Part shown: piece by piece, positions 4,051 to 29,271 of the stretch
Numbering within the stretch: position 1 is the stretch's first letter
How the letters are laid out: each line of letters opens with the position of its first letter
Assembly (NCBI GenBank): GCA_034668705.1
Contig: JAXDOV010000220.1
Coordinates: forward strand, 478 to 64,477
From: Sphingomonadales bacterium
GTDB lineage: Bacteria; Pseudomonadota; Alphaproteobacteria; Sphingomonadales; Sphingomonadaceae
Reading direction: 5' to 3'
DNA: 64,000 nucleotides
The notes under the pieces: model-generated
Seen by the model: only the letters and a program-made list of their open reading frames with translations
The model's database searches: none
Told to the model about the DNA's origin: nothing
Position numbers and translations under genes: made by a program

Positions 4051-4416
4051 GCCCCCCGCTCGCCGAGACAGGCCGCCACGTCTAGGCCGGAAGAGGGTTA
4101 ATCGCGGCCCGTCCCTCGCCGGAACAACACTGAGCGCAGTTCGTAACACGGCTGCGGCTTGGCCGATGCCTGGAGCCGCTTGCGCTCCGTTCGTGTGTCA
4201 CGATGGATTTAGCAAGCAGGTCTACCATCGGCCGTTAGCTGGCGGACGGCTGTCAGGCTCGAGATGACAATAGCCACCACTCGGCGGCCCATCCTTCCAA
4301 TGACCGCATCCGGCCCAGAACGGCTATTCCAGCCGGGTGATAGCGGACGCCCTCCCGGAAACTGGCGCTTTTCCGGCATCGTCCGGGATGACGGCTCCCG
4401 ACGCAACCAGCCCGCC

Positions 4417-9572: not shown

Positions 9573-12224
<2,652 letters not shown>

Positions 12225-12266
12225 TTTCGGAACGTGGCTTCCTGAAAGAAGAAGACCCTCACCCTG

Positions 12267-12290
12267 CCCTCTCCCGCGAGCGGGAGAGGG
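12267..12290. repeat. REP-like GC hairpin in the spacer between the two metH genes
   Basis: CCCTCTCCCG-CGAG-CGGGAGAGGG: a 10-bp perfect stem 7 nt after the stop of the upstream gene. Sequence type (CCTCACCCTGCCCTCTCCCGC...) resembles dispersed alphaproteobacterial intergenic repeats. Confidence 0.6.
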
Positions 12291-12296
12291 GATTTC

Positions 12297-13331
12297 TCAG
12301 GCGGCCAGGATCATGGGCTCGATGCCGGCAAGCAACGTCCGCCGGGGCGGTGATGCGATCTGCCGCGGCGGAAAGTCCCCGGCGGTGCGGGCGATGGCGG
12401 CGATATGCTCCGGCGTGGTGCCGCAGCAGCCGCCGACGATGTTGACGATCCCCTGCTCGCACCATTGCCGGACCTGGGCGGCGGTGGTCTCCGGCCCCTC
12501 GTCATAGGCGCCGAGATCGTTGGGCAGGCCGGCATTGGGATAGGCCATGATCAACGTGTCGGCGATCGCCGACAGAGCGGCGACATGGGCGCGAAGCTGG
12601 GCCGCGCCGAACGAGCAGTTGAGGCCGACCGAGAGCGGCCGCGCGTGCCGGATCGAGGCCCAGAAGGCCTCGATCGAATGGCCGGAGAGGTTGCGCCCGG
12701 ACAGATCGGTGATGGTCATCGACAGCATGATCGGCAGCGCCGGATCGACGCGGCGGGCGGCGTGGATCGCCGCCTTGGCGTTCAACGTGTCGAACACCGT
12801 CTCGATCAGCACGATCTCGGCGCCGCCTTCGACCAGCCCCTCGATCTGCTCGACATAGACGTCGGACAGGGTGTCGAAATCGACCTCGCGATAGCCGGGA
12901 TCGTTGACGTTGGGCGACAGCGACAGGGTCTTGTTGGTCGGGCCGAGCGCGCCGGCGACGAAGCGCTTGCGCCCGTCCTTCTGCGCTTCCCGCTCCGCCA
13001 CCTCGCAGATGATGCGGGCGGCGGCATGGTTGATCTCGCGCACCAGATGCTCGGCGCCGTAATCGGCCTGGCTGATCCGGTTGGCGTTGAAGCTGTTGGT
13101 GGCGAGGATGTCCGCGCCGGCGTCGGCGAAGCTCCGGGCGATGGCGTCGACCAGCTCCGGCCGGGTCAGGTTGAGGAGATCGTTATTGCCCTTCTGGTCG
13201 CGGGCGAGGTCGAGGCCGCCGCGATAATCGGCTTCCTGGAGGCGGCGCGCCTGGACCTGCGTGCCATAGGCGCCGTCCTTGATCAGGATGCGCTCGGCCG
13301 CCGCGGCCCTAAGCTGTTCGGCGATGTTCAT
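12297..13331 (-). CDS. Homocysteine S-methyltransferase module (N-terminal part of a split MetH)
   Basis: 344-aa ORF. Hcy-binding barrel with the zinc-ligand motif [11 protein letters not shown], directly upstream of metH. Confidence 0.9.
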
Positions 13332-13332
13332 A

Positions 13333-13605
13333 GGGGTTCAAGTCCTCCATCGGAGGTGGTCGGGATCGGCCGGGGAAGGCGGCTGAGTAGGAGAGGGCCG
13401 AAGGGCGGGCCAGGAAGCCCGGTCGAGGCGCTCGACGCCCGCAGCCGCCTTCCCCGGCCGACCGCGTAGCGGCGGACTGTCTTTTGTCGCCCGGACGTCG
13501 TCGCTTCGTCGGTCACAATGGGGTCTCCATTGCTCCCTCCTCGCTCCTCGCCGGACAACAAAATCCAGTCCGTCACGACCGCCCCCGATGGAGGACTTGA
13601 ACCCC
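13333..13605 (-). promoter_or_regulatory. Highly structured intercistronic element (outer helix plus two long hairpins) between metF and the homocysteine-module gene
   Basis: Perfect 21-nt inverted repeat 13333-13353 / 13585-13605. Perfect 20-bp hairpin 13366-13385 / 13442-13461. 22-nt-arm hairpin 13473-13494 / 13551-13572 (18 WC, 2 G-U, 2 mismatches). See findings. Confidence 0.6.
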
Positions 13606-14535
13606 ATCTTCCCTGGGCCTGAGGCCGAGCAGGTGGCAGATCGCATAAGCCAGCTCGGCGCGGTTCAACGTGTAGAAATGGAACTGGCGGACGCCGCCGG
13701 CATAAAGCTGCCCGCAAAGCTCGGCGGCGACGGTGGCGGCGACGAGCTGGCGCGCCGACGGCAGATTGTCGAGCCCTTCGAACAGGCGGTCCATCCACGG
13801 CGGGATGGTGGCGCCGCAGCTCGCGGCGAAGCGGCGGGTCTGAGCGACGTTGGAGACGGGGAGGATGCCCGGCACCAGCTCGGCATGGATGCCGGCCGCC
13901 GCCGCCGCGTCGCGGAAGCGGAAGAAGCAGTCGGGCGAGAAGAAGAATTGGGTGATCGCCCGGTCGGCGCCGGCGTCGATCTTGCGCTTCAGATTATCGA
14001 GGTCAGCGGCCAAAGTCGGCGAGTCCGGATGGACCTCCGGATAAGCGGCGACGGAGATTTCGAACGGCGCCACCCGCTTCAGCCCGGCCACCAGCTCGGC
14101 GGCGTTGCGATAGCCGCCGGGATGCGCCTCGAACGGCTTGCCGGGCTCCGGCGCATCGCCGCGCAAGGCGACGATGTGGCGGATCCCCGCCTCCCAATAA
14201 GCGCGGGCGATGGCGTCGACCTCGTCGCGATCCGCTTCGACGCAGGTGAGATGGGCGGCGGCGTGGAGCGACGTCTCGCGCACGATCCGCGCGACGGTGG
14301 CATGGGTCCGCTCGCGGGTCGAGCCGCCGGCGCCGTAGGTGACCGAGACGAAGCGCGGCTGCAGCGGCTCCAGCGTCTTCACCGATTCCCAGAGCGTCTG
14401 CTCCATCTTCTCGGTCTTCGGCGGGAAGAATTCGAAGCTGACGCCGATATCGCCGGCGACGTCGGCGAAGAGCGGCTCGCGCCAGGCGGCGATGGCAGGG
14501 CTGGCGATTACCGGGCTGGCGATTACCGGGCTCAT
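13573..14535 (-). CDS. metF: Methylenetetrahydrofolate reductase
   Basis: 320-aa ORF with FEFFPPKT and VSVTYGAGGSTRERT motifs. Start overlaps the sahR stop as ATGA. Confidence 0.92.
   Translation of the reverse strand: MSPVIASPVIASPAIAAWREPLFADVAGDIGVSFEFFPPKTEKMEQTLWESVKTLEPLQPRFVSVTYGAGGSTRERTHATVARIVRETSLHAAAHLTCVEADRDEVDAIARAYWEAGIRHIVALRGDAPEPGKPFEAHPGGYRNAAELVAGLKRVAPFEISVAAYPEVHPDSPTLAADLDNLKRKIDAGADRAITQFFFSPDCFFRFRDAAAAAGIHAELVPGILPVSNVAQTRRFAASCGATIPPWMDRLFEGLDNLPSARQLVAATVAAELCGQLYAGGVRQFHFYTLNRAELAYAICHLLGLRPREDGVQVLHRGRS
14498..14527. repeat. Perfect 15-bp tandem duplication in the first codons of metF
   Basis: GGGCTGGCGATTACC x2 (14498-14512, 14513-14527), preceded by a degenerate third unit. 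Encodes M-SPVIA-SPVIA-SPAIA. Confidence 0.9.
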
Positions 14536-29194: not shown

Positions 29195-29271
29195 GCGCCC
29201 GTAGCTCAGTTGGACAGAGCACGAGCCTTCTAAGCTTGGGGTCGCAGGTTCGAATCCTGCCGGGCGCGCCA
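29195..29271 (+). tRNA. tRNA-Arg (anticodon UCU)
   Basis: Hand-folded 77-nt cloverleaf. Acceptor GCGCCCG/CGGGCGC, D-arm GCTC/GAGC, anticodon arm CGAGC-CTTCTAA-GCTTG, T-arm GCAGG-TTCGAAT-CCTGC, discriminator G plus an encoded CCA. Confidence 0.95.

Follow-up and report, generated by a model that had tools for sequence, protein, structure and literature searches.

The stretch of DNA analysed here (hereafter the window) comprises 64,000 nt of contig JAXDOV010000220.1 from a Sphingomonadales bacterium, and carries on its minus strand metF, the gene for methylenetetrahydrofolate reductase, followed by a metH that is split into a homocysteine S-methyltransferase module and a protein with pterin-binding, B12-binding and activation domains. 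At the junction of metF with the homocysteine-module gene lies a 273-nt element built of three helices (13333-13605; coordinates are those of the window unless a contig is named), which is read here on the minus strand, the one that encodes metF and the split metH. The helices were first pointed out in a preliminary description made from the letters alone, and the helices, arms, spacers, GGAGGA motif, distance to the ATG and letters of a mini open reading frame (ORF) that it listed are all present.

The outer helix is a perfect 21-nt inverted repeat (13605-13585 with 13353-13333) that extends to 33 nt at 91% complementarity, and the 21-mer occurs at two sites only in the window, where the number expected by chance is 0 and 0/100 shuffles matched. 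Its 5' arm is located in the last metF codons, with the metF stop TGA (13575-13573) at the inner end of the arm, and its 3' arm, which contains the GGAGGA, ends 1 nt ahead of the ATG (13331-13329) of the homocysteine-module gene. Hairpin I pairs 13572-13551 with 13494-13473 (18 Watson-Crick pairs, 2 G-U pairs and one 2x2 mismatch), and hairpin II has a perfect 20-bp stem (13461-13442 with 13385-13366) that can be extended to 25 nt at 92%. In each hairpin the arms are separated by 56 nt, and the spacers among the three helices measure 12, 11 and 12 nt. The mini-ORF, ATG GAG ACC CCA TTG TGA with GGAGG upstream, stands at 13530-13513. The minus-strand RNA of 13320-13620 folds strongly, its minimum free energy being -198.7 kcal/mol where shuffles average -132 (z = -11.95), and the opposite-strand RNA of the region folds too, less well (-186.1 kcal/mol, z = -9.9). 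No further copy of the element was found within the window, either in a search allowing 3 mismatches or with nhmmer. The coordinates of the element, its parts and the adjoining genes are collected in Table 1.

Table 1. The element, its parts and the adjoining genes in the window (SD, Shine-Dalgarno).
Feature	Coordinates	Strand	Basis
Whole inserted element, 273 nt	13333..13605	-	Empty versus filled sites; homologous copies in other contexts; single copy in window
Outer helix, 5' arm; encodes the last 10 MetF residues GVQVLHRGRS and the metF stop, the preceding Asp being completed by the flank	13573..13605	-	
Outer helix, 3' arm; 1 nt short of the homocysteine-module ATG; GGAGGA at 13347-13342, 11 nt from the ATG	13333..13365	-	
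Hypervariable, always-paired segment of the outer helix, 5' side; partner 13336-13352	13586..13602	-	Alignment columns 4-20 paired with 255-271; compensatory changes in 15 of the 17 pairs
Hypervariable paired segment, 3' side	13336..13352	-	C-terminal residues of 113 pseudo-ORFs vary at the same place
Hairpin I; 22-bp stem, conserved U-G wobbles, branched apical region	13473..13572	-	Fold; alignment helices 2-5
Near-invariant purine-rich SD-like tract GAGGAGGGAGCA, then ATG 13530-13528	13528..13542	-	Invariant alignment columns 65-77
Small covarying hairpin GCAATGG...CCATTGT	13514..13533	-	Columns 73-80 with 86-92: G-C to A-U changes, variable loop length
Short stem-loop of 4 bp, CCGC-UAC-GCGG, between hairpins I and II	13462..13472	-	Fold; alignment helix 6
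Hairpin II; 20-bp perfect stem, 56-nt branched loop, most conserved core of the family	13366..13461	-	Helices 7-10; core 24-mer used as probe
Putative relay reading frame, 82 codons	13328..13576	-	Open frame; translation predicted
metF, methylenetetrahydrofolate reductase, 320 aa	13573..14535	-	Pfam MTHFR
Homocysteine S-methyltransferase module of split metH, 344 aa	12297..13331	-	Pfam
Pterin-binding / B12-binding / activation-domain protein	9573-12224		Pfam

Insertion at the metF-metH junction and a dispersed repeat family

The junction was compared across the 120 closest MetF homologues, which are 83-94% identical and labelled Allosphingosinicella or Sphingomonadales. In 117/120 of them the MetF C-terminus reads ...LRPKEE..HRRTA or similar (for example ...EETHEHRRTA where there is no element), and among these closest homologues the tail ...LRPREDGVQ.. 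is confined to the window, P0002 (contig L008) and P0007 (contig L007). Four empty loci that were fetched (L003-L006) have metF overlapping the homocysteine-module gene by approximately 23 nt, as in GAAGAGACACATGAGCATCGCCGAACAGCTTAG. On the contig of P0007 the element has a left junction identical to the window's (GGGAAGAT/GGGG). The contig of P0002 ends within the element (1044-1102), as does a JGI contig (L001, 4075-4096) whose MetF is identical to the window's and whose end is garbled and G-rich; contig breaks of this sort are typical of repeats, and the element seems to break short-read assemblies.

Because the empty relatives overlap by approximately 23 nt while only three alleles carry the element, the ancestral state is an overlapping and putatively coupled metF/metH junction into which the element inserted. 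The operon before the insertion was a chain of overlapping, coupled genes. The insertion swapped the last 8-9 MetF residues for a tail and stop codon encoded by the element and left metF and metH separated by 241 nt. Of the 320 residues the MTHFR Pfam domain reaches as far as 304, so that the element-encoded tail lies beyond it. The empty sites in relatives, together with the copies in unrelated contexts described below, bear out the suggestion in the preliminary description that a MITE-like insertion (MITE, miniature inverted-repeat transposable element) supplies the MetF tail and the sequence ahead of metH.

A search with the core 24-mer returned five metagenome contigs with the same core between other genes, and a profile of seven element-core translations retrieved 113 clusters of "hypothetical proteins", several of them labelled Sphingomonadales, two of these from a single metagenome-assembled genome (MAG). 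Most of these pseudo-proteins are exactly 65 aa long, with a strong SD sequence ahead of the ATG, and look-ups of six of the clusters yielded further sites. The gene contexts number at least 10 besides metF-metH, with at least 11 independent ones in total. They include a pckA-chvI site that is orthologous in two lineages (L015 and L016-L021), an fmt/truA site that lies 10 kb from the chvI site within one genome and gives that genome two copies, and further sites at smpB/DUF2062, cutA/DUF2306, vut-pfkB and ihf/merR; a copy also adjoins yidC. The copies are 269-332 nt long and each has a terminal inverted repeat (33 nt in the window), a TA often follows the 3' end of the element and is not mirrored at the 5' end, and the hosts are Allosphingosinicella or Sphingomonadales MAGs, with no matches on plasmids or in viral contigs.

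We consider it likely that the element is one copy of a dispersed, structured repeat family of approximately 270 nt, that it was inserted here, and that its fold is under selection. Multiple copies were what the preliminary description had named as the sign of a MITE or REP family. The family is apparently undescribed, the literature on MITEs and intergenic repeats in Sphingomonadaceae having yielded no description of it, and its hosts are Allosphingosinicella-like Sphingomonadales. It shares with MITEs the terminal inverted repeats, the small size without a transposase gene, the dispersed copies and the coexistence of empty and filled sites.

Several further observations concern individual copies. 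A scan of 185,579 species representatives with the exact arm 21-mer matched one other genome, a Sphingomonadaceae MAG (STL-PRO45, JAXMDV010000001.1; L002), in which a solo 23-nt copy of the outer arm (CCGGGGTTCAAGTCCTCCATCGGAG, 4228-4250) lies 3 nt before the start of clpA. No second arm and no element core were found nearby, and the solo arm may be left over from a member of the window copy's subfamily that has been deleted. Some copies have, nested in hairpin I or II, additional small palindromes 63, 60 or 45 nt in length, each of them a hairpin in its own right, as if a smaller repeat sat within the larger (L009 around 2405-2470; L024 around 10130-10180; pseudo-ORFs P0147-P0153, P0169-P0170, P0174-P0175 and others). 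A module of each type is present in 6-8 clusters, and none of those detected disrupts the frame, although the search method favours this outcome. In L014 (9926-9958), where the copy is antisense, the called start and first five codons of the DUF2062 gene fall within the variable arm on the opposite strand, and the repeat may supply the N-terminus of that protein.

The remainder of the operon shows three other features. The metF ATG is overlapped by the stop codon of the upstream gene, which encodes a fusion of an ArsR helix-turn-helix domain with an S-adenosylmethionine (SAM) methyltransferase (ATGA, 14532-14535). At the 5' end of metF (14488-14532, minus strand) a 15-nt tandem repeat present three times encodes SPVIA-SPVIA-SPAIA at the MetF N-terminus, where the closest relatives have two units. 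The spacer between the halves of the split metH is a variable junction, with 72 nt in the window (12225-12296) and 76-161 nt in L003-L006.

Conservation of the fold and constraint on fixed copies

Nine independent copies were aligned (alignment A3) and a consensus was computed with RNAalifold. The family fold is a Y shape in which a terminal helix closes two long hairpins with sub-hairpins. It comprises 102 pairs, with standard pairing in 97.2% of cells, and 30 of the pairs show compensatory (double-sided) changes, compared with 12.9 ± 2.2 in shuffles, 0/500 of which reach 30; sliding the partners by 1-3 columns leaves at most 6 compensatory pairs. The compensatory changes that the preliminary description proposed to look for in relatives are present.

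The outer helix holds most of the covariation (17/32 pairs), and within it 15 of the 17 pairs that make up a variable segment show compensatory changes. The ends of the helix are conserved as GGG(G)TYC / GRACCC(C) and its inner part as GGAGGCGGTCGTGA / TCACGGCCACCTCC, and the 14-17 bp between these boxes vary from locus to locus while remaining complementary in all copies. Each hairpin is conserved over most of its length, and so is an exposed AGGAGGGAGC-ATG. The variable arm is inherited with its locus, the window, L007 and L008 sharing GGGGTTCAA.TCC... and L015 and L016a sharing GGG.CCGC.CTCGGGG.C. We considered whether the variable arm might be copied from the insertion site or guide the element to it, and rejected the idea, as the arms match their own flanks (±40 nt) no better than those of other loci. 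A derivation of the arm from a tRNA was likewise rejected: the string GGTTCAAGTCC, which resembles a T-arm, belongs to the hypervariable segment and is not found in other copies, and the sole ARAGORN hit in the window is the tRNA-Arg at 29195, with none in L002.

Other features that stand out in the window are not shared by the family. The symmetry of the two 56-nt loops, which the preliminary description had taken as a strikingly regular layout, is lost in the L007 copy, where a loop is 1 nt shorter, and in other copies with insertions of 45-63 nt. The GGAGGA of the 3' arm is CTGGAT in the orthologous L007 copy, and most copies have no SD-like run there. The mini-ORF as such does not survive comparison either, its length and frame being unconserved; what is conserved at this place is a small covarying hairpin, GCRATG...CATYGT, following the near-invariant AGGAGGGAGC. 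A conserved GATCACGGCCACCTCC in the 3' arm (13354-13375, in all copies) pairs with GGAGG in the 5' arm, so that the element holds SD-like and anti-SD-like strings that are mutually paired. The GATCACGGCCACCTCC string resembles GATCACCTCC, the 3' end of 16S rRNA.

Wobble pairs differ between the strands. G-U is the commonest pair at nine positions, compared with two positions at which A-C (a G-U on the other strand) is commonest, and two wobbles are invariant in 9/9 copies (U-G at columns 51:117 and G-U at 73:92). The sense RNA is more stable than the antisense RNA in 9/10 independent copies.

Orthologous copies give a measure of constraint in place. Between the window and L007 the element is 87.2% identical, compared with 70.7% at metF third positions, 75.5% at metH third positions and 68.5% in another spacer. 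We rejected recent recombination as an explanation for this high identity, since third-position identity in the 150 nt on each side is 72% and 80%, no better than in distal bins. Between L015 and L016a the element is 93.3% identical, with 75-79% at third positions. Stem changes between the members of each pair are double-sided with retained pairing in 8 cases (window/L007) and 4 cases (L015/L016a), one-sided through G-U in 4 and 3, and leave one member with a mismatched stem pair in 4 and 1. Unpaired columns diverge by 14.7% and 9.0%, respectively, versus 21-29% at third positions. Because the element exceeds third-position identity, stem changes are compensated and loops are conserved too, the fixed copies are, judged by these comparisons, under constraint, which is unexpected for a decaying selfish insertion.

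Proposed translation across the element and rival explanations

The 3' end of the element lies 0-8 nt before a co-oriented start codon at 7 of the 11 assessable independent sites, and at most of the abutting genes (metH, yidC, chvI, pfkB, merR, DUF2306 and a DUF2891-like gene) the N-terminus looks genuine. The abutment holds despite approximately 75-100 nt of 5' spacer at pckA-chvI and vut-pfkB. In most family members the element's own frame opens at the SD-ATG, and its stop is either a TAA or TAG where the element ends or falls on the start of the downstream gene, with stop-to-start spacings of -4, -4, 0, +1, +1, +2, +4 and +8; overlaps of -4 are seen in the window (ATGA), L013 (ATGA) and L009 (GTGA), and spacings of 0 to +8 at six other sites. 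In the window the SD-ATG frame is cut to 5 codons by a loop that is 1 nt longer, and the mini-ORF is what remains of it. A second frame begins there with a GTG (13576-13574) that overlaps the metF TGA as GTGA, remains open for 82 codons, and ends with a TGA (13330-13328) that overlaps the metH ATG as ATGA. Selection does not act on the amino acids of this frame.

The best reading of these observations is that of a MITE-like or MIRU-like repeat (the MIRU being the mycobacterial interspersed repetitive unit) whose RNA fold and relay frame would preserve the translation of metH. The selected fold would be that of the sense strand, most simply as RNA within the host mRNA, and ribosomes crossing the element would melt the fold and be delivered to the downstream start. 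In the window, ribosomes translating metF would unwind the entire 5' arm and stop at the TGA at its inner end, the overlapping GTG would open the 82-codon frame by re-initiation, and that frame would end in the ATGA on the metH start; elsewhere in the family, ribosomes would load at the element's own SD-ATG. Coupling through RNA unfolding may contribute, as a terminating metF ribosome would have opened all 33 pairs. The insertion may have displaced the native ribosome-binding region and made the host dependent on an element that can be both folded and traversed, and such dependence would explain the purifying selection and the compensatory changes in fixed copies. Taken on its own, the relay mechanism is a tentative proposal that may well turn out otherwise. 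A broader proposal, which we regard as rather doubtful, is that the family is a start-codon-seeking mobile translation relay cassette, a self-closing RNA module with its own strong SD-AUG and a stop-free frame to its 3' terminus, which could insert between a gene and its ribosome-binding site without silencing the gene and would lock the host into keeping the fold, and that the pairing-only arm segment, with its conserved boxes on either side, would mark recognition of the folded single strand by a structure-specific recombinase or an RNA-based mobility, and not by a classical transposase that binds terminal inverted repeats.

A number of points weigh against the best reading as a whole. On the MetF tree the three filled alleles are not monophyletic, each being closest to empty alleles, and since they share locus-specific arms all the same, a single insertion followed by recombination between lineages or by losses is the simplest account of their history. 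No direct repeat is shared by the flanks in 12 copies or junction pairs, so that the target-site duplication of a MITE is missing, and no partner transposase or autonomous insertion sequence with matching termini was found, in searches that included no whole host genome. Two of the 11 assessable copies (L014 and L016b) are antisense to both neighbours, a poor fit to a role purely at the level of mRNA, and several sites came from ORF-based retrieval, which favours copies with an intact frame and maybe those with co-oriented neighbours. In almost all copies none of the three sense frames meets a stop within the last ~160 nt. Open frames are cheap because of the GC content of this DNA, and by our own estimate an open relay frame has roughly a 1-in-10 chance in the ancestral sequence and is not statistically established. 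The conserved ATG is out of frame in approximately 22% of the pseudo-ORF clusters as well as in the window copy. Finally, fold-level compensation in a palindrome could also stem from conversion between the arms at the level of DNA.

This last point leads to the first of the alternatives, a purely selfish DNA element whose fold would matter only as single-stranded DNA in transposition or recombination, in the manner of integron attC sites or the ends of IS200/IS605, and whose arms would be kept by hairpin-templated conversion or repair. Sites of the attC type are imperfect palindromes with conserved short terminal boxes and a variable paired middle, recognised by their structure and active as one strand; they measure 57-141 bp, have RYYYAAC/GTTRRRY cores, and adjoin cassette genes and an integrase. 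The conserved boxes and structure-only spacer of the terminal helix resemble such structure-specific recombination sites, and the missing target-site duplication, the two antisense copies, the tolerance of DNA hairpins for G-T wobbles and the fact that both strands fold far better than shuffles all suit a DNA-level role. The core, cassette and integrase features of attC were, however, not seen in the element, and the GTTCAAG of the window arm misfits GTTRRRY. The loops of orthologous copies are conserved above third positions, which arm-to-arm conversion cannot explain, selection on transposition does not preserve an individual fixed copy, and the bias of 3' ends to co-oriented starts is left unexplained, as is the invariant exposed AGGAGG-ATG. 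We therefore regard a purely selfish DNA element as unlikely.

The helices might instead act as a module for RNase III or mRNA stability, being cleaved or bound so as to separate the fates of metF and metH mRNA or to provide the downstream mRNA with a protective 5' stem. All three helices are at least 20 bp long (20-33), approximately two helical turns, and the G-U bias of the sense strand points to RNA. There are precedents in the terminal inverted repeats of Neisseria Correia elements, which are cleaved by RNase III (PMC10969869), and in ERIC, which alters mRNA decay (PMC3184786). Such a module would leave the start-codon abutment and the conserved SD-ATG unexplained, and a cut in the outer helix would take away the stretch immediately ahead of the metH start codon. 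Plausible by analogy with these repeats, such a module is in our view of low probability, and it is not exclusive of the repeat with a relay frame favoured above.

The preliminary description had also proposed that ribosomes finishing metF open the outer helix and free the GGAGGA for a new 30S subunit on metH. Part of this idea stands in modified form, namely a coupling by ribosomes that is plausible from the metF stop at the inner end of the arm and from the frame running from GTGA to ATGA; a ribosome terminating there must have melted all 33 pairs, and coupling by RNA unfolding over tens of nucleotides is documented for rpmI-rplT and for phage f1 genes VII-IX (PMC12548453). What is weakened is the buried SD as the regulated feature. 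The GGAGGA is 11 nt from the ATG, it is not conserved in L007, and the efficiency of coupling drops steeply with the distance between stop and start (PMC12548453), which is 241 nt here. A buried SD freed by metF termination thus seems improbable to us.

Two remaining explanations can be dismissed briefly. A riboswitch or translational operator built for methionine or folate control at this locus, as the position inside a methionine-synthesis operon and the high degree of structure might suggest, is refuted by the distribution of the element, which is absent from 117/120 MetF homologues as judged by their C-termini and adjoins chvI, yidC, pfkB, merR, smpB and fmt; the region gave no covariance-model match to cobalamin, SAM or S-adenosylhomocysteine riboswitches or to any other Rfam family at E<=1 (three junk hits only at E<=10 in the window region, E 2.7-8.9, far below gathering scores, and no match for three other copies), so that we see scarcely any room for it. 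It is hardly credible, despite the 113 clusters, the usual length of 65 aa and the strong SD before each ATG, that the MKIHRDRR... frame encodes a real small protein, since substitutions are uniform over codon positions (variable columns 31/31/31, minimum substitutions 43/42/41), the conserved "residues" track conserved stems, and the frame is broken in several copies (it closes at 5 codons in the window and L010, different frames are used in L007 and L009, and P0227, P0228 and P0233 are frameshifted).

Relation to known repeats and significance

Signals of other known classes were searched for as well. At Rfam gathering scores the whole window contains one tRNA only. An intrinsic terminator was rejected, as there is a weak 5-pair match at 13581-13566 inside hairpin I and no U run after hairpin II or the outer helix. 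No sigma-70-like match was found for an internal promoter, which is weak evidence in an alphaproteobacterium. The REP/BIME type of repeat, with palindromic units of 20-40 nt that are often clustered and go with a RAYT transposase, was rejected too: the unit here is 270 nt long with a complex fold, and there is no clustering in the window.

The closest likeness in working logic is to the MIRUs, which insert at start codons with an ORF coupled at -4 (PMC12548453). Both are short, mobile-looking repeats between operon genes at start codons, and the internal ORF coupled at -4 to the downstream gene recalls the delivery of ribosomes proposed for mycobacterial MIRUs. MIRUs are 40-100 bp long, belong to Actinobacteria and frequently form tandem arrays, and no large conserved multi-helix fold is known for them, whereas the present repeats are approximately 270 nt long, occur as single copies in Sphingomonadales (Alphaproteobacteria), and have a 33-bp terminal helix and two 20-bp hairpins, backed by covariation, and their own strong SD-ATG. 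The resemblance is one of working logic only, and a relationship in sequence is not expected.

The Correia elements (CREE) of Neisseria and the ERIC of enterobacteria share with the repeat family the terminal inverted repeats, the lack of a transposase, the dispersed intergenic copies and the empty and filled sites in relatives. According to PMC10969869 and PMC3184786, they are co-transcribed with their neighbours, and their long stems are RNase substrates or alter the fate of the mRNA. They differ in having TA target duplications and terminal inverted repeats conserved in sequence, whereas the present family has no duplication, a terminal repeat that is variable in its middle, and about twice the size. 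The bcr1 repeat of the Bacillus cereus group is dispersed and transcribed, and compensatory base changes keep its RNA in a cruciform-like structure (PMC3184786). It is approximately 155 bp long with flanking 5-bp direct repeats and is found in Firmicutes, and a preference for start codons or an internal SD-ATG is not reported in the text consulted. The same source describes the Neisseria REP2 repeat as carrying a ribosome-binding site and ATG upstream of ORFs (PMC3184786). As described there, REP2 is without terminal inverted repeats, has a promoter, and has its ATG fused to the downstream ORF, whereas in the present family the frame comes to its stop where the downstream gene starts, and a sigma-70-like promoter was looked for and not found. 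The element belongs to a known class of small structured intergenic repeats (MITE, MIRU, bcr1 and REP2-like). A terminal repeat of which one part is held to pairing alone is uncommon among MITEs, and hints at a mechanism of mobility in which the folded strand is read.

The finding has consequences for annotation, since the repeat, translated, accounts for more than 100 of the "hypothetical proteins" in Sphingomonadales MAGs, 65-107 aa in length, and the MetF of the source genome carries a C-terminal tail derived from the element. The family also amounts to a natural experiment in which 270 nt of very stable RNA structure has been dropped into a translationally coupled junction, and at two independent loci the insert has since been subject to purifying selection, compensatory changes included. 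If the relay is true, it would extend the MIRU principle to Alphaproteobacteria and would represent a portable device of compact size that couples translation over a structured spacer.

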